Source of the DNA: Candidatus Nomurabacteria bacterium
Lineage (GTDB): Bacteria > Patescibacteriota > Patescibacteriia > HK-STAS-PATE-3
DNA length: 64,000 bases
NCBI GenBank assembly: GCA_023898465.1
Contig: CP060223.1
Coordinates: 1,018,587 to 1,082,586 of the forward strand
Direction: 5' to 3'
The stretch's first letter is position 1. Every line of letters begins with the position of its first letter. Shown here one piece after another: positions 300-60,403 of the stretch. Position numbers and translations under genes: made by a program. Under the pieces are notes generated by a model that was given only the letters and a program-made list of their open reading frames with translations, had not been told where the DNA came from and searched no databases.

Positions 300-944
300 A
301 TGTTCACACGTAAAACATTCATTCTTAGCATAAGCGCGCTTGGTCTGCTTGGTTTGATTTTCGCCTTCACTCGTTCCGGGGGAAATGTGAGTGAATCAAA
401 TACCAATACAAGTCGCGTTGAAGGAGTAGCCACTATGTCTAGTCAGCAGGAGAAGCTTGCCCAGTCGCCGACAGCTGTTGTAGAAACAAATTTCGGGACA
501 ATGAAGATTCGCTTTTATGCAGATGATGCGCCAGAGCTAACAAAAAACTTTATTGAGCTAGCCAAGAGCGGGTATTACGATGGATTAACTTTTCATCGGA
601 TTGTCCCGGGTTTTGTTATTCAGGGTGGTGACCCAAATGGTACAGGTACAGGCGGGCATAGCTATAAAGGTGAGGGTCAGGGCTTAGCCGATGAGCCAGG
701 TGCTTTAGCGCTTACGCATGAAGTTGGTGCGGTGGCCTGGGCAAAATCAAGCCTACCGAATTCTATTGGTAGTCAATTCTATATCGCTTTGCAGGAGTTA
801 CCAATGCTTGATGGTGGTTACTCAGTTTTTGGTCAGGTTGTTGAAGGTATGGATGTAGTGCAAAAAGTTGCTGCAGTGCAAACTGATGCCAGTGACATGC
901 CAGTGGATCCGGTGACCATTACAAAAGTAAGCTTGTTAGAATAA
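300..944 (+). CDS. ppiB: Peptidyl-prolyl cis-trans isomerase, cyclophilin type, with N-terminal membrane anchor or signal
   Basis: FHRIVPGFVIQGGDPNGTGTGG cyclophilin signature; hydrophobic N-terminus. Confidence 0.9.
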   Translation: MFTRKTFILSISALGLLGLIFAFTRSGGNVSESNTNTSRVEGVATMSSQQEKLAQSPTAVVETNFGTMKIRFYADDAPELTKNFIELAKSGYYDGLTFHRIVPGFVIQGGDPNGTGTGGHSYKGEGQGLADEPGALALTHEVGAVAWAKSSLPNSIGSQFYIALQELPMLDGGYSVFGQVVEGMDVVQKVAAVQTDASDMPVDPVTITKVSLLE

Positions 945-1041: not shown

Positions 1042-1614
1042 CTACGCTCTCTCGACGTATTCGCCGGTTTCAGTGTTGACGCGGATGACGTCGCCGTTTT
1101 TCACAAATGCCGGGACGCGGATAGTCGCACCAGTTTCCACTTTTGCTTCTTTTAAAACAGCACCTTGGGCAGTATCACCACGGACAGCGTCTGTGGTTTC
1201 TGTTACCGTCAGAGTTAGCTTCATTGGCAATTCAATAGTAACTGGCTTGCCGTTGTAGTTCATGATATCGACATCGAGTCCCTCAGTCATGAATTGCACT
1301 TCGTGTTCGAGTTGTGTTAGGGGGAGGGAGAATTGGTCGTAGCTTTCCGAGTCCATAAACACGCACTGATCGCCCTCGACATAGAGGAAACTTGCTTTGC
1401 CACGGCTAAGATCAGCCCGCTCTACTCGGTCGCCTGACTTAAAGGTCTGCTCGATAACCCGGCCATCCAACAAGTTTTTCAACTTCGTACGCATGTTCGG
1501 CTTACCCTGCGATTTGCGCATGAAGGATGCTTCCACAATCTTATATGGTGCACCACTCCAGTTAATCACCACGCCGAGTTTTAGGTCGGTGAGGTTTTGT
1601 AGAATGTCAGCCAT
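1042..1614 (-). CDS. efp: Elongation factor P
   Basis: Full-length similarity to EF-P (KOW/OB domains; ...KNGDVIRVNTETGEYVERA). Confidence 0.95.
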   Translation of the reverse strand: MADILQNLTDLKLGVVINWSGAPYKIVEASFMRKSQGKPNMRTKLKNLLDGRVIEQTFKSGDRVERADLSRGKASFLYVEGDQCVFMDSESYDQFSLPLTQLEHEVQFMTEGLDVDIMNYNGKPVTIELPMKLTLTVTETTDAVRGDTAQGAVLKEAKVETGATIRVPAFVKNGDVIRVNTETGEYVERA

Positions 1615-8935: not shown

Positions 8936-9454
8936 TTAGTATGGGATCGAATCAATCAAAGAGTAGTTAGCATTTACAAAATCTTTATAGCTTGACCACG
9001 GCCAGTCCTCAGGTTTATTTACCAACCCATCCCTCACTGGATTATAATGAATATAGTTCACGTGATGATTTAGATCTTGTTGGTCACGGATGATGTGGTC
9101 GTAAAATGATTTTTGCCAAATAAATTTCGTAGATAGCCGAGGATGATCATCCTCGGCTATGAGGTGTGGATATATAATATTAATACTCCTTGAAATGTTT
9201 CTTTTTAGGCAATGCATAAGATCAGAAATATTACTTTCATAACGAGGCCGTAACAAAAAATGTGCATGATCATGCATTACAACATACGCGTATAGATAAT
9301 AAGGTTGGATATTTTTTGTTATTTGGAGTCGGGAGATAACAATATTCGCAAGATGAGAATCTTTGAAGAAGGGAATTCTATTGTGAGTTACAATTGTGAC
9401 AAAATATATTCCATCCGGAATATAGATTCGTTTAAGCTTACTAATAAACAACAT
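8936..9454 (-). mobile_element. IS200/IS605-family Y1 (REP-associated tyrosine transposase-like) transposase gene, very AT-rich
   Basis: HxH motif (MHDHAHFLL) and catalytic Tyr region (FYDHIIRDQQD...YIHYNPVRDGLVN...DWPWSSY) typical of the Y1_Tnp family; GC of about 32% against about 58% flanks. Confidence 0.8.
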
Positions 9455-18322: not shown

Positions 18323-18408
18323 GCCGGAGTGGTGAAATGGCAGACACGCCAGGTTTAGGACCTGGTGGGAGCAATCCCGTGGAGGTTCAAGTCCTCTCTC
18401 CGGCACCA
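18323..18408 (+). tRNA. tRNA-Leu (anticodon TAG), long variable arm, CCA encoded
   Basis: Acceptor gccggag/ctccggc; anticodon stem ccagg/cctgg with loop ttTAGga; T-loop ttcaagt; 3' acca. Confidence 0.85.
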
Positions 18409-18415
18409 CGGCCCA

Positions 18416-18475
18416 TCGCGGGCTGCGGCTTCCGTAGATTCAAACAAGTTGAATCTACGGAAGCCTCCACCCGCG
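18416..18475 (+). other. Long near-perfect hairpin (17-bp perfect core ggcttccgtagattcaa / ttgaatctacggaagcc, extended by gcggg..cccgc) immediately 3' of tRNA-Leu
   Basis: Direct inspection; part of the tRNA-associated repeated element. Confidence 0.7.
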
Positions 18476-21116: not shown

Positions 21117-24203
<3,087 letters not shown>

Positions 24204-24451: not shown

Positions 24452-24568
24452 CTCCGGTGCTTCAAGCGATGAGGTCACACCCGATCCCATTCCGAACTCG
24501 GTCGTTAAGCTCATCAGCGCTGATGATACTACGGGGCATACCGTTGGGAAAGTAAGCCAGTGCCGGTT
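24452..24568 (+). rRNA. rrf: 5S ribosomal RNA
   Basis: ...cacccgatcccattccgaactcggtcgttaagctcatcagcgctgatgatactacgggg... with terminal helix ccggtgc/gtgccgg; T-rich terminator follows at 24575-24615. Confidence 0.85.
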
Positions 24569-24677: not shown

Positions 24678-25403
24678 ATGCGACCTATCATGTTTGTTAT
24701 CTGGCTGCTGGTAGTCAGCAGTATTGGGCTTGGGATCGCCCAAGCCAACCCTCGCACGGATCGGCAGGACCTCCTGATCGAGGATCAGGTAGCTCCTCAC
24801 TTTGAGTTGAGGGAGGCACTGGGTAACGATGGCTACAACACCATCTTCGATGGCCAAGTCATCGAGGCTGACCAGCTGACTCAGCTCATTGCGGTTGTCG
24901 ATACGATGAGCGCCAACGACGTCGAGTACGTGGAGTTTGTCTGGCGACCCATCGGCGAGACCAACTGGAACCTGATCGATGCAGATCTGCATATCAAGGA
25001 CGGTGTCACTTGGGAACTCGGATCCTGGCAACCGGTGGATCTAGGCTATCCTATCATCGAGCTGGCTCCAGTCGGAGTTGACTACGTTGGAAATGTGGAT
25101 TGGAATCCGGAGACGCTGATCATCAGAACCTCGGCTTCAGCTCCATCGGCACCAGTGCGGCTGCGAGTCTACCGTGCTGGAGATGCTGGATATCAATTCC
25201 AGCTCATGTCACAGGGCGTACCTTCGGAGATTCAGATCTTCAATGTCGCCGGGCGTCGAGTCGCCCTACTGCCTGTACCGAGCAATGCGGAGCGCGTTAC
25301 TTGGTCAGGTCGTAGCATGAGCGGCGAGCAGGTCGCCAACGGCGTTTACTTCGCCCGAGTAGCTGACAGCGATCAGCAAGCTCGAGTCGTGGTTCTGCGC
25401 TAG
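24678..25403 (+). CDS. Secreted hypothetical protein with a C-terminal T9SS/Por-type sorting-domain-like (or FlgD-Ig-like) tail; GC-rich
   Basis: RBS AAGGAGG; signal peptide MRPIMFVIWLLVVSSIGLGIAQA; C-terminus IQIFNVAGRRVALLP...W.G....G..VANGVYFARV...ARVVVLR. Confidence 0.5.
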   Translation: MRPIMFVIWLLVVSSIGLGIAQANPRTDRQDLLIEDQVAPHFELREALGNDGYNTIFDGQVIEADQLTQLIAVVDTMSANDVEYVEFVWRPIGETNWNLIDADLHIKDGVTWELGSWQPVDLGYPIIELAPVGVDYVGNVDWNPETLIIRTSASAPSAPVRLRVYRAGDAGYQFQLMSQGVPSEIQIFNVAGRRVALLPVPSNAERVTWSGRSMSGEQVANGVYFARVADSDQQARVVVLR

Positions 25404-54273: not shown

Positions 54274-54792
54274 CTAGCTTATTACAATCGTGTATCTCTT
54301 AAATATTTTGTTTAGGTTTTTGTATATTGAAGTAGCCAATCCGAAGCTCCCAACGCTCTTTTCACTACCCTTTGGTTCGTCCGGAAAAAGAAATTCAGAG
54401 AAGTAACGGCACGAATGAAAAAAAAGATCGTCGGGATGTTGGGTTTCTTCGCCGATTCTCGCCTCGTAATTTTGTTGTACTGCATATACTGCGTCGCTTG
54501 TCTGTTTAATTTTATCATCGCTCCATCCTAACGACCGCCCACTCTTTTTTATAGAGTCATATGTAAGTACAAAAGTTTTTCCAACGTCAAAGACATTTTT
54601 TGAATTGACTGTTAAATACAGCGAGAGAAGGTGAAGTCTGAAAACTAGTATATATTCTTTCAGCTTACCGATATCCTGGTCGGTAAAGAACTTCGTATTT
54701 GAAAAATCAACCTTATTTTCAGACTTCAATATTTCATCTACAAGCGACTGAATAAACTCTTCGGCGGTTATCTTTTTACGGAATAGTGACAT
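54274..54792 (-). CDS. Hypothetical protein (172 aa), AT-rich relative to neighbours
   Basis: ORF with no recognisable motifs; compositional outlier. Confidence 0.4.
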   Translation of the reverse strand: MSLFRKKITAEEFIQSLVDEILKSENKVDFSNTKFFTDQDIGKLKEYILVFRLHLLSLYLTVNSKNVFDVGKTFVLTYDSIKKSGRSLGWSDDKIKQTSDAVYAVQQNYEARIGEETQHPDDLFFHSCRYFSEFLFPDEPKGSEKSVGSFGLATSIYKNLNKIFKRYTIVIS

Positions 54793-54931: not shown

Positions 54932-56680
54932 ATGACAACTTCTTTAGCTAAACAGCTTCGCGATATTCCTAAGCAACCCGGCGTGTATCTCTATTATGAT
55001 CGCCAGGGCGTGGTTATCTATGTGGGGAAGGCAAAGAATCTCGCCAAACGGGTGAAGTCGTATTTCCAACGCACCAAAGACCTCACGGCCGAGAAGCAAA
55101 TCCTAGTCCGGTCAATTCATCGTATCGAGACTATTGTGACCAGCTCGGAGATTGAGGCCTTGTTGCTGGAAGCAACCCTGATTAAGCGTCATCAACCCAA
55201 GCATAATATTGTGCTGCGGGATGATAAATATTTTCTCTATGTACGCATACCACTGGACGATCCCTATCCGCCGGTCGTGTTAGTTCGCAGCCTGAAGCGT
55301 GATCGCGCTCGCTACTTTGGTCCCTATACCTCGGCGTATAAGCTACGCAGCACTTTAAAGTTGTTGCGTAAAATTTTCCCATACCGTATTTGTCCAAACC
55401 CACCGGAGACGCCTTGCTTTGACGCGCAGCTAGGACGTTGCGCCGGGCATGATTTAGGGCCAGACAGTCGAGCGCACTATCAAGAGATTATTCAGGGCGT
55501 CATGCGTTTCTTGTCTGGTCACAGCACCGAGCTATTGAAGCAGCTAAAAAAAGAAATGCAGCTTGCTTCGCGCTCACATGATTTTGAGCGGGCGGCCGAG
55601 TTTCGTGATCGTCTGCAAGCAGCTGAAACAGTCGTAGCTGAGCAAAAGGTGGTTTCAGCGGCACGTGAAAATGAAGACTATGTAGGTTTCGCGCGATCAG
55701 GCTCACTGGTGCTGGTGAATCTTTTCCGAGTGCGCCAAGGTAAGTTGATAGGCAGCGAGCAGTTTCGTTTAAGTCACGCGGCCCAAGCATCAGAGGGTGA
55801 AACGCTGGCGGCTTTCCTAGAGCAATACTATGCCCAGAGCGCTGATCATCCCAGGCAGGTACTCTTACCTCTTTTACCCGACGGCATCCAGGAAATAACA
55901 AACGCTTTGCAATTGCCTTTTGTCATGCCGCAGCGAGGTAAGAAGAAAAAGCTACTTCAACTAGCTGCAGAGAATGCCAAGCTGCATTTGGATCAAGACG
56001 CAAAAACGGAATTGAAAGAGCGCGATCGTCGCACGAAGGCCTTAAAAGATTTAGCCCAGGCTTTGGGTTTGGCTAACGCTCCACGTCGCATTGAGGCGTA
56101 TGACATTTCCAACATCCAGGGTCGCAATCCAGTAGCCTCCATGGTTGTGGTAGAAGAAGGTGTGCCTAAGAAGAGCGAGTATCGTAAATTTATTATCCGT
56201 CATGTGAAGGGACCGGATGACTTTCATATGTTGGCCGAGACATTAGGGCGTCGCTTGCAACATCCTGATTGGACGAAGCCTGATCTCATAGTATTGGATG
56301 GCGGTAAGGGGCAACTCTCAGTTGTTCGCGCCCTGGTGCCTACCAAAATTCCCATGGTTGCTTTAGCCAAACGCGAAGAGGAAATTTTTTTACCCGAGAC
56401 AAGCAAGCCCGTCATGTTGCCGCGCGATTCAGAAGCGCTCTATCTCATGCAGCGCATTCGTGATGAGGCACATCGTTTCGCCATTGGCTTCCATCGACAG
56501 CGCCGTGGCAAAGAAGCGCTGCGTTCTCGCCTGGATGATGTCGAAGGTATTGGGCCAAAGACTAAGAAGTTGTTGAAAGAGCGCTATGGTACGGTCGCTG
56601 CTATTCGCTCAGCCAATTTCGACGACCTCGTGCGCTTGGTTGGCAAGGCCAAAGCAAGCCTGTTGCGCGAGATGCTGTGA
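54932..56680 (+). CDS. uvrC: Excinuclease ABC subunit C
   Basis: GIY-YIG N-terminus (GVYLYYDRQGVVIYVGKAKNLAKR), UvrBC domain, RNaseH-like and HhH C-terminus. Confidence 0.95.
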   Translation: MTTSLAKQLRDIPKQPGVYLYYDRQGVVIYVGKAKNLAKRVKSYFQRTKDLTAEKQILVRSIHRIETIVTSSEIEALLLEATLIKRHQPKHNIVLRDDKYFLYVRIPLDDPYPPVVLVRSLKRDRARYFGPYTSAYKLRSTLKLLRKIFPYRICPNPPETPCFDAQLGRCAGHDLGPDSRAHYQEIIQGVMRFLSGHSTELLKQLKKEMQLASRSHDFERAAEFRDRLQAAETVVAEQKVVSAARENEDYVGFARSGSLVLVNLFRVRQGKLIGSEQFRLSHAAQASEGETLAAFLEQYYAQSADHPRQVLLPLLPDGIQEITNALQLPFVMPQRGKKKKLLQLAAENAKLHLDQDAKTELKERDRRTKALKDLAQALGLANAPRRIEAYDISNIQGRNPVASMVVVEEGVPKKSEYRKFIIRHVKGPDDFHMLAETLGRRLQHPDWTKPDLIVLDGGKGQLSVVRALVPTKIPMVALAKREEEIFLPETSKPVMLPRDSEALYLMQRIRDEAHRFAIGFHRQRRGKEALRSRLDDVEGIGPKTKKLLKERYGTVAAIRSANFDDLVRLVGKAKASLLREML

Positions 56681-56728
56681 ATCCGCCCAGGATCAATTCC
56701 TGGGTTACGAGGTACAATATTGACATCG

Positions 56729-56754
56729 CCGCCCAAGCTCAATGCTTGGGCTAC
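56729..56754. repeat. REP-like palindromic element (ccgcccaagc-tcaat-gcttgggctac), copy 1, 3' of the RAYT gene
   Basis: 8-bp stem / 5-nt loop hairpin; identical 26-mer to copy 2. Confidence 0.8.
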
Positions 56755-56785
56755 TAGCGTAGGCGAAGTATTACTCTTTGCTGTG

Positions 56786-57265
56786 TCAAAGGAAATCAGG
56801 ATTATCTAAATGAATCGGTTCATTGAGACTAAGATATCGAGCCTTAGCTGAAGACCAAGGATAGTCTGTTGCTTCATTCACCAATCCTGATTGAACAGGG
56901 TTGTGATGAATATAAGCCGCTTTATTATTGTAGTCATTTTGATCCCGTATAATATGATCATGAAAACCATGCTGAATAAGTTGTCCGGATTTATTTTTTC
57001 TAATATTCCATTCCCGCGAAAATCTTCCATTGAGATGTCGTAGGGTGTTGCTAATCGAGCCATCTTTTGATGGACAAATAATGAGATGGTAATGATCAGG
57101 CATGAGCACGAATTCGTATATGCGAATCCCGTAGCGGACACGCAGTTGTATGAGAATGTTCAAAAAAATATTACAAGCAGTTTCGGAAAGGAATATATTG
57201 CGCCGCTTGTGCATGACCACAGTTACAAAGAAAGGGAGATAATAGATGTCTAGGCGCTTTTTCAT
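56786..57265 (-). mobile_element. IS200/IS605-family Y1 transposase (REP-associated tyrosine transposase, RAYT-like)
   Basis: HxH (MPDHYHLII) and Tyr region (FHDHIIRDQNDYNNKAAYIHHNPVQSGLVN..DYPWSS); flanked both sides by identical REP hairpins. Confidence 0.8.
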
Positions 57266-57273
57266 ATCAAACT

Positions 57274-57343
57274 CCGCCCAAGCTCAATGCTTGGGCTACG
57301 TAAAAATGTAATTCTCTGCGCAGGCGAAGAATTGATCTTCGCC
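57274..57343. repeat. REP-like palindromic element, copy 2 (identical 26-mer), plus a second hairpin ggcgaaga-attga-tcttcgcc, 5' of the RAYT gene
   Basis: ccgcccaagctcaatgcttgggctac at 57274-57299; ggcgaagaattgatcttcgcc at 57323-57343. Confidence 0.8.
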
Positions 57344-57523
57344 GTGCCGATTCAATGGAATACACAACATGACAACCTTTTTGATCGCCACTTCTTTACC
57401 CTATTCGCTTCTGTTTATTTGGTCAAGTTGGGTTGAAATATGAAAACTACCCAAACTTGAATAGTGCTGCTAGGATGAGGGTAAATCAGTACCTGGGTTT
57501 TTGGATGATGTAAGGAGGGCGAT

Positions 57524-58645
57524 ATGTCCGGTGTCCGGATACTTGGTTACGGCGCATACGTGCCCCAGTGGATCGTTGACAATGACGAGATGACACGACT
57601 CATCAACGAAGCTGTTCGGGCTGGACTTGCCAGTGGCGAGATCAGTGGAGACCTCGACGGACTTCTGTGCAATGAGGGTTTCATCGAAGCGCGAACAGGG
57701 ATTTGTGAGCGTCGCTTCGTGGTGCCGGGTCAAGCGAGTAGCGATTTGGCGGTGGGCGCGCTACAGTCCTGTGAACGCACGACTGGTTCAATCGAAGGAG
57801 ATGGGAGCTTCTTACGCATTGCAACGGTGACTCCGGATTATCCGGCCTCACCTCCTACGGCAGCTGTTGTTCAAGAAGCTATGGGGTGGCCCTGCGCTCA
57901 TCCCGATGGTCGCTTGATCGATCGGCTGGTGGGAGATGGTTCGGCTGCCTGCACTAGCTTCGTCACCGAGCTGGCCCTAGCTGAAGCGTTGCTGAGGTCA
58001 GGGAATCGACGGGCCGGATATGTCGTTGGCGCGGATGTGATGTCGACCTTGCCTGATCCTTGCGACCGGGCAGTACGCATCATTCTCGGCGATGGAGCCT
58101 TTGCGCTCCAACTTGGTGTCGGTGAAGAAGATGAGGACTGCTTCCTGCCTGGCGGAAAGAGCTTCTTCTTCGGATCTGACGGCAGCATGGCTGATTTGAT
58201 CAAGGTGCCGGCTGGTGGATCACGTCGCCCGGTTGGCTTGGATGATCTGCGTGGCGCGGTGCCGCGTTTGGCGTATCTGCACATGCAGGGCAACGAAGTG
58301 TTCAAGAAGATTGTCCGTCGCGTGACTGATGAAATCGTCTTGCAGGCATTGGCGAAAGTCGGGCTGCAGGTCTCGGACATTGACTTGTTCGTGTTTCATC
58401 AGGCCAATCTGCGTATGATCGATGCGGTGACGAAGCGCCTCGAGATTGAAGCCAGGACTTTCAACAACATTGATCGTTTCGGCAACACGACCAGTGCATC
58501 GATCGGCCTGTGTCTGGCCGAGGCGCACGCCAAAGACAGGCTCAAGGCAGGTATGCGCGTCATGTTGGTGGGCTTTGGCGGAGGCTTCACCTGGGGGACC
58601 TGCATTCTCCGTTGGCCCGACCTACCTGTCTGTTCTTTTCTCTAG
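57524..58645 (+). CDS. 3-oxoacyl-ACP synthase III (FabH/KAS III)-like condensing enzyme, GC-rich
   Basis: Thiolase fold; FHQANLRM (His), GNTTSASI (Asn), candidate nucleophile in GSAACTSF. Confidence 0.75.
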   Translation: MSGVRILGYGAYVPQWIVDNDEMTRLINEAVRAGLASGEISGDLDGLLCNEGFIEARTGICERRFVVPGQASSDLAVGALQSCERTTGSIEGDGSFLRIATVTPDYPASPPTAAVVQEAMGWPCAHPDGRLIDRLVGDGSAACTSFVTELALAEALLRSGNRRAGYVVGADVMSTLPDPCDRAVRIILGDGAFALQLGVGEEDEDCFLPGGKSFFFGSDGSMADLIKVPAGGSRRPVGLDDLRGAVPRLAYLHMQGNEVFKKIVRRVTDEIVLQALAKVGLQVSDIDLFVFHQANLRMIDAVTKRLEIEARTFNNIDRFGNTTSASIGLCLAEAHAKDRLKAGMRVMLVGFGGGFTWGTCILRWPDLPVCSFL

Positions 58646-58849
58646 TGCTTCCACGCCAGCCTATACTTCACGAGTCTAGGCTGGTTTTTCCTTTATCTAA
58701 TATATATAGCATCCCTCGACTTCTCGACTTAGCTCGAAGCTCGGGATGATTTTGCTATTTTTTTGTGTTGGGAAAATCAAAACCGCCCGATGGGACGGGC
58801 AGCGTTCTACTGAGTGTGGGAGCAGTGCGAAACGTGCTCCCAGAGTGGG

Positions 58850-59013
58850 TTAGTGTATCGTTGTGAGGTGTGCTCCGCAGGCCAGAGCAACAGCCATGAT
58901 CATCGGATCGGCCAGAACCAGAACCACCAGGACCTTGACCCAACCAGGCGTCTCGCGCCAAACCTGAATCATCTGCTTTCCAACAGCGATGCATTCCTTG
59001 CACCAGTGCAGCA
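58850..59013 (-). CDS. Hypothetical small membrane protein (54 aa) with N-terminal CxxC: MLHWCKECIAVGKQMIQVWRETPGWVKVLVVLVLADPMIMAVALACGAHLTTIH
   Basis: Purine-rich aaagggga 6 nt upstream of ATG; two downstream hairpins, the second followed by a T-run (about 58780-58815). Not in the ORF track (<60 aa); competing + ORF 58814..59041 lacks an RBS. Confidence 0.3.
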
Positions 59014-59149
59014 TGTGAGATCCCCTTTCCGAAACATGTGAACGAACGACCCAAACTCTGAGCGCAGTGTACTCTTTTCTTTCACCAATACAAGGGTAGG
59101 CAAAAAGCTAACCCTTGACTTTCTCAATGGATGTGCTGAGGTCTATTTT

Positions 59150-60403
59150 TTAGCGAGGCCTGATTTGACCAGCTCCTTCAATAATCCACTTATAGGTGGT
59201 GAGTTCGCGCAGCGCCATCGGGCCACGGGCATGTAATTTCTGCGTGCTGATGCCAATTTCTGCACCTAGGCCAAACTCAAAGCCATCGGTAAAGCTAGTT
59301 GCCGTGTTTACATATACGGCCGCAGCATCAACTTGTTGCTCAAATGCTTGGGCTGCTTTGGTATTCCGCGTCACAATTGCTTCTGAGTGTCCGGAAGTAT
59401 GCGATTGCACAAAAGCGATTCCTTCTTTCCAATCCCTCACCGTCTTTACTGAAGCCTGGAGGGAGAGAAACTCCTTACCATAATCAGAAGACTTCGCATG
59501 TTTAAGTAACGTTGCTGGATAGTAGGATTTGAGAGCGGCGTAACTTTTTGCATCAGCATAGAGCACCACTTCCTCTTTCATGAGCTCAGCAGCCAGTTTT
59601 TTCATGAATGATTTCACTACGCTTTTATCAACGACGATAGTGTCGAGAGCGTTACAGACGCTGGGACGGCGAGTCTTTGCGTTTACTACAATACGAGTTG
59701 CCCAATCCAAGCGGGCAGATTTTTCTACGTAGGTATGACAGACTCCAGCGCCAGTTTCAATCACTGGCACAGTAGCGTTTTGACGTACAAAGCGGATAAG
59801 GCGGTCGCTGCCCCGGGGGATCAGTACATCGACATAGCCATCAGCTTGCATGAGTGCTTTTGTTTGACTCGGATCAAGCAGGGAAATTGCTGCCGGATTC
59901 AGCTTATGCTTTTTTAACACCTCATGGGCGATTTGCACAAATGCTTTATTGGAAAAGTCGGCATCACTTCCGCCCTTGAGGACAACGGCGTTGCCTGTTT
60001 TAAGCGTGATACTAGCGACCTCGACCGTCACGTTTGGCCTGGCTTCATAGATAACCCCCAATACGCCAATCGGTACAAGTACGCGACGAAGGTGCAACTT
60101 ATTTTTTAGACGACGTTGCTCAAGCACTTCACCGATTGGATCAGGCAGACCTTTCACCGCACTGACACTCTTGGCAATTCCTCGGATGCGCTCTTTTGTG
60201 AGCAGTAAACGATCAGCCAGAGGATAGTCTTTCGGGAGTTTGGCAAAGTCTCGGTGATTCGCTTGAAGAATTTTTTTTTCATGACGCAGTAAGGCAGCAG
60301 CAAAGTCCGCTAGCAGCTTATTTTTTTGTGCAGTACTTAAAAGAGCCAGTGCATTTGCGGCTTGACGAGCTTGGGTAAGTTGTCGTTCTAGTGCGTGCTG
60401 CAT
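59150..60403 (-). CDS. proA: Gamma-glutamyl phosphate reductase
   Basis: ALDH-fold ProA similarity (VIYEARPNVTVE, catalytic Cys region GAGVCHTYV). Confidence 0.95.
   Translation of the reverse strand: MQHALERQLTQARQAANALALLSTAQKNKLLADFAAALLRHEKKILQANHRDFAKLPKDYPLADRLLLTKERIRGIAKSVSAVKGLPDPIGEVLEQRRLKNKLHLRRVLVPIGVLGVIYEARPNVTVEVASITLKTGNAVVLKGGSDADFSNKAFVQIAHEVLKKHKLNPAAISLLDPSQTKALMQADGYVDVLIPRGSDRLIRFVRQNATVPVIETGAGVCHTYVEKSARLDWATRIVVNAKTRRPSVCNALDTIVVDKSVVKSFMKKLAAELMKEEVVLYADAKSYAALKSYYPATLLKHAKSSDYGKEFLSLQASVKTVRDWKEGIAFVQSHTSGHSEAIVTRNTKAAQAFEQQVDAAAVYVNTATSFTDGFEFGLGAEIGISTQKLHARGPMALRELTTYKWIIEGAGQIRPR

Follow-up and report, generated by a model that had tools for sequence, protein, structure and literature searches.

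RAYT-1 encodes a predicted 159 amino acid transposase of the domesticated type in a metagenome-assembled genome (MAG) of the Patescibacteria, labelled Candidatus Nomurabacteria bacterium (assembly GCA_023898465.1, contig CP060223.1). The gene is at positions 56786..57265 on the minus strand of the 64,000 nucleotide stretch of DNA that was analyzed, here termed the window, and it is surrounded by copies of a short palindromic repeat. The whole feature spans positions 56683–57346. It is very probably a REPtron, i.e. a gene for a REP-associated tyrosine transposase (RAYT or TnpA-REP, a class 2 Y1 HUH endonuclease of single-stranded DNA, ssDNA) together with its cognate doublets of repetitive extragenic palindromes (REPs) and inverted REPs (iREPs). 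This interpretation is carried by the family, the fold and the catalytic residues of the protein, by the anatomy of the hairpins and the selection on their stems, and by the arrangement that is kept in relatives. By analogy with known RAYT systems, the protein would bind, cleave and mobilize the repeats, and the system may have arrived recently.

Repeat units at the RAYT-1 locus

The 26-mer CCGCCCAAGCTCAATGCTTGGGCTAC is found exactly twice on the plus strand of the window, at positions 56729–56754 and 57274–57299. In 100 shuffles the expected number of such exact duplications was zero. A first-pass annotation of the sequence had described a Y1 transposase gene bracketed by these identical hairpins, each with an 8-bp stem and a 5-nt loop, and this is what is found; the stem is GCCCAAGC/GCTTGGGC. 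The annotation had placed one copy 10 nt upstream of the start and the other about 35 nt downstream of the stop. The two sides are correct, but the gap to the ATG is 8 nt and the gap to the stop codon is 31 nt. Read on the RAYT coding strand, the 26-mer has the sequence GTAG-CCCAAGC-ATTGA-GCTTGGG-CGG. The upstream copy (REP R1a, positions 57274–57299, minus strand) displays a predicted fold of −10.3 kcal/mol (z = −6.0). The downstream copy (REP R1b, positions 56729–56754, minus strand) is identical to R1a, and both score 32.3 bits with the covariance model described below.

A second perfect hairpin, GGCGAAGA/TCTTCGCC, is located beyond the upstream copy at positions 57323–57343, as had also been reported. 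It proves to be the same type of repeat as the 26-mer in the inverted orientation. The unit (iREP R2, positions 57320–57345) reads GCAG-GCGAAGA-ATTGA-TCTTCGC-CGT on the plus strand, with a fold z-score of −4.0 and a covariance model score of 32.4 bits (E-value = 2.6e-6). A degraded copy of positions 57318–57346 is present at positions 56757–56785, where it abuts the RAYT-1 stop codon. It is 79% identical and retains five of the seven stem pairs. The corresponding degenerate iREP, R2deg, is at positions 56759–56784 on the plus strand and has the sequence GTAG-GCGAAGT-ATTAC-TCTTTGC-TGT (27.6 bits, E-value = 6e-5).

A third related copy of the 26-mer, CCGCCCAGGATCAATTCCTGGGTTAC, is at positions 56683–56708, 2 nt past the stop codon of uvrC, which ends at position 56680. 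This unit (REP R1c, minus strand) reads GTAA-CCCAGGA-ATTGA-TCCTGGG-CGG and scores 31.8 bits (E-value = 4e-6), and its ssDNA fold has a predicted energy of −7.7 kcal/mol (z = −4.6). Compared with R1, two stem positions are altered on both sides of the stem, i.e. the changes are compensatory.

Each of the five units, when read on its own strand, displays the layout G[T/C]A[G/A], 7-bp stem, ATTGA, stem and CG, with R2deg being degenerate. The conserved tetranucleotide that had been anticipated 5′ of the hairpin is present as the canonical GTAG; directly 5′ of the stem there is GTAG in three units, GTAA in one and GCAG in one. A perfect 7-bp stem with an ATTGA loop occurs four times in the 64 kb, and all four occurrences are at the RAYT-1 locus. 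The ssDNA folds of the units have z-scores of −4.0 to −6.0 relative to shuffled controls.

The units are arranged as doublets. R1a (minus strand) and R2 (plus strand) form a head-to-head doublet with a 20-nt spacer upstream of the gene, and R1b (minus strand) and R2deg (plus strand) form a head-to-head doublet with a 4-nt spacer downstream of it. RAYT-1 is flanked by these two REP/iREP doublets, which resemble bacterial interspersed mosaic elements (BIMEs) or REPINs, and there is one extra REP, R1c, at the uvrC stop codon. R1a is located in the 5′ leader of RAYT-1, and its 3′ CGG runs into a GGAG motif similar to a Shine-Dalgarno sequence. Autoregulation of RAYT-1 by way of R1a is conceivable, although this is purely speculative.

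Related loci and covariation of the stems

Tagged hairpins are also found beside RAYT genes at related loci. Protein P0002 (locus L007, 39% identity to RAYT-1) has one member of an inverted pair on either side; GTAA-GCGCAAG-CAAAG-CTTGCGC is upstream of it and GTAT-GCGCAAG-TGAAG-CTTGCGC is downstream. P0190 (L014, 48% identity) has two downstream units in opposite orientations, GTAG-GCGAAGC-TTGA-GCTTCGC and GTAG-CCGAGGC-TTGA-GCCTCGG. P0154 (L015, 46% identity) has a "double-foot" unit, GTAA-GCGGAAA-CAAGA-TTTCCGC-CTAC. A tag of the GTAG type is directly 5′ of the stem in all three of these loci.

The closest relative examined is P0003 (L013, 50% identity). The sequence GTGGCGA-caaga-TCGCCAC is found on both sides of its gene (positions 222–242 and 843–861) as a direct repeat that is followed by a T-run and is without GTAG. 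The flanking hairpins of L013 represent a terminator-like variant of the flanking-repeat theme.

Covariation of the stems was assessed with fixed-geometry pair counts and an ungapped six-row alignment because MAFFT misplaced short REPs that have 4-nt loops or differing stems. With the fixed-geometry count, all seven Watson-Crick pairs are kept in nine of ten units, and nucleotide identity changes at six of the seven stem positions. In the six-row alignment 97.6% of the cells are paired and six of the seven pairs change on both sides. The covariation score of this alignment was reached by none of 500 shuffles, and when the partners are slid out of register only 31–52% of the cells are paired. 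A covariance model built from the six rows gives the five window units 27.6–32.4 bits and all else in the window 13.8 bits or less; the L014 units, which were held out, score 24.7 and 21.6 bits. Thus the stems drift in sequence, whereas the hairpin fold, the 5′ tag and the link to the gene are all retained, and the stem structure of the REPs is under selection. This is the pattern that has been described as RAYT/REP co-evolution (Corneloup et al. 2021, PMC8266576).

These observations also bear on a simpler explanation, that the hairpins are ordinary terminators or regulatory stem-loops of uvrC, of RAYT-1 or of the neighboring FabH-like gene and that their proximity to a transposase gene is incidental. 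The positions of R1c and R1b just past the uvrC stop codon, of R1a in the RAYT-1 leader, and the T-runs that follow the flanking hairpins at L013 are in keeping with it. However, none of the five units is followed by a T-run and a terminator scan picks up none of them. Both orientations of the GTAG-stem-loop-stem unit occur on either side of the gene, and the unit is also found beside RAYT homologues in unrelated gene contexts. In addition, in the approximately 180 kb of loci examined, hairpins of the REP kind are almost exclusively beside RAYT genes. The terminator explanation is therefore very unlikely.

The RAYT-1 protein

The RAYT-1 open reading frame is intact. The translated sequence displays a Pfam Y1_Tnp domain (37.9 bits). 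The first-pass annotation had read the locus as having RAYT architecture and had suggested a comparison of the protein with hidden Markov models of both families. RAYT-1 passes the NCBIfam model of REP-associated tyrosine transposases (REP_Tyr_transpos, NF047646) with 120.5 bits (cutoff 80), and falls below the cutoff of the IS200 model NF033573 with 24.7 bits (cutoff 55). In a search of sequences in the PDB the best match is E. coli TnpA-REP (4ER8, E-value = 7.9e-11), while the ISDra2 and IS200 transposases are matched with E-values of about 1e-3 or weaker. In the alignment with 4ER8, PDHYHLI is paired with PEHMHCI and YIHHNPVQSGLV with YIYINPVKHGWV; the HUH and YI..NPV motifs of RAYT-1 are aligned with those of the E. 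coli protein (YIYINPV).

The AlphaFold model of RAYT-1, made from a 65-sequence alignment, has a pLDDT of 93.7 and a pTM of 0.89. Its top fold match is again 4ER8, with a TM-score of 0.78 over 157 columns. The matches to IS200, IS608 and ISDra2 are weaker (TM-scores of 0.54–0.58 over about 115 columns).

The key residues are the HUH motif D57-H58-Y59-H60, Q98, and Y118 in the motif YIHHNP (Y118, N122, P123). Among the 14 closest relatives D57, H58, H60, Q98, Y118 and N122 are invariant. The class 2 signature consists of HuH together with a catalytic Tyr in Y-x-x-x-N-P, and class 1 (IS200) proteins have Y[IV]ENQ (Quentin et al. 2018, PMC6006769 Table 1). YIHHNP is a Y motif of class 2 (TnpA-REP), and the class 1 signatures Y[IV]ENQ and DH[VI]H are absent from RAYT-1. 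Relatives of RAYT-1 are annotated at JGI as "REP element-mobilizing transposase RayT" or "REP-associated tyrosine transposase"; the database record of the exact RAYT-1 protein reads "MAG: transposase [Candidatus Nomurabacteria bacterium]". An exhaustive phmmer search finds 20,083 representative clusters at E-values of 1e-3 or less and only five at 1e-30 or less; RAYT-1 is a divergent member of a very large family. Sequence comparison and the structural model thus support the assignment of RAYT-1 to the RAYT class of Y1 transposases and not to classical IS200. Together with the GTAG tags, the stem covariation and the tagged hairpins of the relatives, this upholds the earlier reading of the architecture.

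The protein evidence bears directly on the most serious rival of the REPtron interpretation, an autonomous insertion sequence (IS) similar to IS200/IS605. The identical hairpins would then be the left and right subterminal ends of a unit of about 570 bp (56729–57299) which moves as a whole and has recently been inserted downstream of uvrC. The 26-mers are indeed identical, in direct orientation and both on the coding strand. In IS200/IS605 elements both ends are also on the active strand, and the genetic structure is equivalent (PMC8266576). A direct repeat of one hairpin likewise brackets the gene of the L013 relative. Against such an element are the failure of RAYT-1 with the IS200 model and its success with the RAYT model, the class 2 Y motif, and the closest structure being that of TnpA-REP. 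Furthermore, R1c, R2 and R2deg are found beyond the supposed ends or lie across them, and they make up REP/iREP doublets, which are typical of REPtrons and not of ISs. There is also no tnpB gene beside RAYT-1, where the neighbors are uvrC and the FabH-like gene; elements of the IS200/IS605 kind often have this partner gene, and several highly similar copies per genome. An autonomous IS is considered distinctly unlikely, with further evidence on it given below.

Genomic context

The host is a member of Patescibacteria (the Candidate Phyla Radiation, CPR) with a MAG of about 1.08 Mb. The protein record is from Patescibacteria, and the closest named relatives of UvrC (gene at positions 54932–56680; 46–50% identity) are from Kerfeldbacteria and "Patescibacteria group" MAGs; the CPR origin of the host is therefore secure. 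The class-level assignment of the source MAG ("Candidatus Nomurabacteria bacterium") may be loose.

The first-pass annotation had taken the transposase gene, between uvrC and a GC-rich FabH-like gene, as the mark of an insertion boundary. This was supported in part. The per-gene GC content in the window has a mean of 48.3% (standard deviation 4.9), and RAYT-1 (38.5%) and a second RAYT gene, RAYT-2 (34.3%), are two of the three genes with the lowest values. A foreign origin fits the low GC content of RAYT-1, and a GC content 10 points below that of the genome also counts in favor of the autonomous IS. The GC content of the FabH-like gene (57.4%) is not evidence of foreignness because native genes have similar values, i.e. 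56.0% for proS and 57.3% for its neighbor. The third low-GC gene is a 172 amino acid open reading frame at positions 54274–54792 (minus strand, GC 37.2%), which has no Pfam match and is immediately upstream of uvrC.

Comparison with the two nearest relatives shows that synteny is broken downstream of uvrC. In the nearest relative (L016, UvrC 63% identical) the order NusA...uvrC...proA-proC is retained, and the interval between uvrC and proA has DUF8173, radical-SAM, ABC/FtsX and MFS genes in place of RAYT-1 and the FabH-like gene. In L017 (UvrC 59% identical) uvrC is about 2.5 kb from the genes HSP20-VanW-NIF3, versus about 14 kb in the source genome, and the L017 genome carries its RAYT gene at another locus. 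When window positions 56680–59150 are compared with 9750–16450 of L016 and 9753–12330 of L017, gene content downstream of uvrC is entirely different in each. The breakpoint is in keeping with the insertion of an IS, but at this divergence it is weak evidence for a recent insertion of RAYT-1. The RAYT-1 locus is also present in assemblies from three other samples with 99.9–100% identity, and the identical context in three independent samples argues against an autonomous IS.

Copy number and weighing of the interpretation

The span that was searched for further copies is 83 kb, i.e. the window with 9.7 kb to the left (L010) and 9.6 kb to the right (L018), which is about 7.7% of the genome. The RAYT-1 gene has one copy in this span by tblastn and the sole other Y1 gene is 36% identical, which also speaks against a mobile IS.

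Several observations weigh against the REPtron interpretation. Neither scans with exact geometry nor the covariance model finds a REP away from the RAYT-1 locus in the 83 kb. The dispersal that makes a REP repetitive is therefore not seen in this span. The pattern CCGCCCANNNTCAATNNNTGGGNTAC has three matches in the genome collection, which is about the number expected by chance, and none of them is in the source genome. The same pattern has two matches in the metagenome collection; their stems are non-complementary and one is in a coding sequence, which indicates chance. Both scans covered collections that do not include the source genome. With respect to the protein, the motif set DHYH / IQ / YIHHNP has no exact counterpart among the published subclasses (PMC6006769 Table 1). 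Finally, the low GC content may be a family trait and not a mark of recent transfer because the RAYT genes of the relatives are also below the GC content of their contigs at every locus (L007 0.47 versus 0.55, L013 0.44 versus 0.49, L014 0.51 versus 0.53, L015 0.34 versus 0.35).

Looser scans of the window, which allowed loop mismatches, stem mismatches or alternative tags, gave background only. A hairpin at positions 24727–24746 has the stem letters of R1 with the arms swapped and is inside a probable open reading frame; it was judged to be a chance occurrence.

In E. coli there are approximately 600 REP copies per 4.6 Mb (PMC8266576). At such a density about 11 copies would be expected in the 83 kb; with none seen outside of the locus, this density is excluded. 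REPs spaced at one copy per 50–100 kb would amount to about one or two copies in the same span, which is compatible with the result. In a related genome (GCA_964637345.1) 38 kb over two loci contain just the two flanking REPs. Concentration near the gene is known from the Marinomonas REPtrons Ma and Mb, where REPs are clustered near tnpA-REP, and this has been read by the authors as a recent arrival followed by local multiplication (PMC8266576).

The absence of dispersed solo REPs in the searched span is in keeping with an autonomous IS. It is also in keeping with a relic REPtron, in which the gene is kept or is drifting, the REPs are left over, and mobilization no longer takes place. The one decayed iREP, with five of seven stem pairs, and the streamlined host genome with little intergenic space are consistent with a relic. 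However, the open reading frame is intact with all catalytic residues present, and four of the five REPs are perfect, two of them with identity at 26 of 26 positions, which suggests recent copying or continuing selection. A relic is regarded as unlikely.

Proposed mechanism

The REPtron interpretation allows a mechanism to be proposed by analogy. Single-stranded REP is bound by TnpA-REP and iREP is not, and the enzyme depends on both the hairpin and GTAG. It cuts at a dinucleotide on the 5′ or 3′ side of the REP, by way of a tyrosine-phosphate intermediate, and rejoins the strands (PMC8266576, PMC3479197). When the DNA is single-stranded, RAYT-1 would likewise bind the folded hairpin and its 5′ GTAG on the REP strand. 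Most likely the protein would read the unpaired GTAG, the ATTGA loop and the 3′ CGG in a sequence-specific manner, and it would read the stem by shape, which would explain why the stem covaries freely. Cleavage would then take place nearby through Y118 with an HUH-bound metal, and strand rejoining would follow. The result would be REP units that are copied or moved.

At the RAYT-1 locus this process may have multiplied the REPs locally, with a fairly recent arrival of the REPtron in the Patescibacteria genome. Such a history fits the identity of R1a and R1b at all 26 positions and the clustering of all five units at the gene. The match between R1a and R1b points to recent copying, and the decayed R2deg shows that turnover occurs.

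A further reading, which is considered unlikely, is that the REPtron of this ultra-small CPR genome is "private" or nascent. REPs would then be present beside the gene only, and the identical hairpins on the same strand would let the whole cassette move in the manner of IS200/IS605. If this were true, the locus would stand, as a living intermediate, between an autonomous IS and a domesticated RAYT, and REP/RAYT systems could invade or persist in the streamlined genomes of episymbionts.

RAYT-2 and other features of the window

RAYT-2 is at positions 8936–9454 on the minus strand, 47 kb from RAYT-1, and encodes a predicted protein of 172 amino acids (USN53501.1) that is 36% identical to RAYT-1. 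It scores 142.4 bits with NF047646, and its GC content is the lowest in the window. The coding sequence contains an in-frame, perfect 28-nt palindrome with a 5′ GTAG at positions 9129–9160 (plus strand), gtag-ATAGCCGAGGAT-gatc-ATCCTCGGCTAT, with a fold z-score of −6.9. REP insertions within the gene, which this palindrome matches, have been described for subclass 2.4 (PMC6006769). Other copies of this palindrome were not found in the 83 kb, and RAYT-2 has no flanking REPs. A hairpin downstream of RAYT-2 was considered as a REP and rejected, as it is an ordinary terminator with a T-run.

A 23S rRNA gene is at positions 21117–24203 and a 5S rRNA gene at positions 24453–24568, and there is no adjacent 16S gene. 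The match to the 23S model covers 3087 nt versus 2925 model positions, so the gene probably carries one or more insertions. Insertions are often seen in CPR rRNA genes.

Two other palindromes are found in the window. One is at positions 18427–18465, 19 nt past a tRNA-Leu gene (18323–18408), and has a perfect 16-bp stem, GGCTTCCGTAGATTCA-aacaagt-TGAATCTACGGAAGCC, with GTAG/CTAC within the stem. The other is an AT-rich, perfect 15-bp palindrome at positions 955–991 between the convergent genes 300–944 (plus strand) and 1042–1614 (minus strand), and is probably a bidirectional terminator.

Significance

To our knowledge, work on RAYT/REP systems has so far been done nearly entirely in Proteobacteria, with some in Cyanobacteria and Bacteroidetes. 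No report of such systems in CPR/Patescibacteria was found in the searchable literature. What is unusual about the RAYT-1 locus is the host; the system itself is known and this example of it is ordinary. It leaves the current understanding of RAYTs unchanged, and its interest is mainly in the host and in the compact REP set. The presence of two divergent RAYT genes in a genome of about 1 Mb indicates that even highly streamlined genomes are within the reach of such elements. With so few REPs, the system would lend itself to the question of how REP families originate, and whether local multiplication comes before dispersal or not. At a length of just 26 nt, with GTAG, loop and CGG conserved and a stem that covaries, the REP would be a convenient substrate for studies of recognition.

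Comparison with known systems

The type of REP found at RAYT-1 is one associated with Group 3 / subclass 2.5. In Group 3 the REPs are short, perfect palindromes that are directly preceded by GTAG (PMC8266576), and two REPtrons of this group, Sm of Stenotrophomonas maltophilia and Mb of Marinomonas sp. MWYL1, have short, perfect palindromic REPs (Corneloup et al. 2021, PMC8266576). GTAG is directly before the palindrome in Sm, as it is at the RAYT-1 locus, and after two bases in Mb (PMC8266576). In Sm and Mb as in RAYT-1, REP and iREP flank a small tnpA-REP gene (about 150–160 amino acids), and in Marinomonas the REPs are also concentrated next to the gene. The loop of the RAYT-1 REPs differs in being 5 nt long (ATTGA) and conserved. 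The protein is not an exact fit to the subclass, as the motifs of subclass 2.5 are DH[LF]H / WQ / YI[VI]ANP and those of RAYT-1 are DHYH / IQ / YIHHNP. The hosts of Sm and Mb are gammaproteobacteria, whereas the present host is a Patescibacteria MAG. Many Group 3 hosts have hundreds of REP copies; here the copies were counted in 83 kb only.

E. coli TnpA-REP (RayT/YafM; REPtron Ec, Group 2 / subclass 2.2; 4ER8) is the closest solved structure to RAYT-1 both by sequence and by fold. The two proteins share an HUH motif, a Q and an aligned YI..NPV motif, although their overall identity is only about 25%. At both loci GTAG is 5′ of the hairpin and REP/iREP doublets (BIMEs) flank the gene. However, the E. 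coli REPs are imperfect palindromes of 29–37 nt with a bulge that is required for activity, whereas the RAYT-1 REPs have perfect 7–8 bp stems. The approximately 600 REPs of E. coli are dispersed, and none is found outside of the RAYT-1 locus in the searched span.

The elements of the IS200/IS605 family (IS200, IS608 and ISDra2) share with RAYT-1 the HUH/Y1 core and hairpins on one strand that border the gene, and presumably also, by analogy, the ssDNA chemistry. RAYT-1 differs in having YIHHNP instead of Y[IV]ENQ, in scoring under the curated IS200 cutoff, and in a fold likeness that is weaker and limited to the core. The RAYT-1 locus differs from these elements in its lack of tnpB, in that multiple identical copies are not seen in the 83 kb, and in the extra, inverted REPs that it carries.

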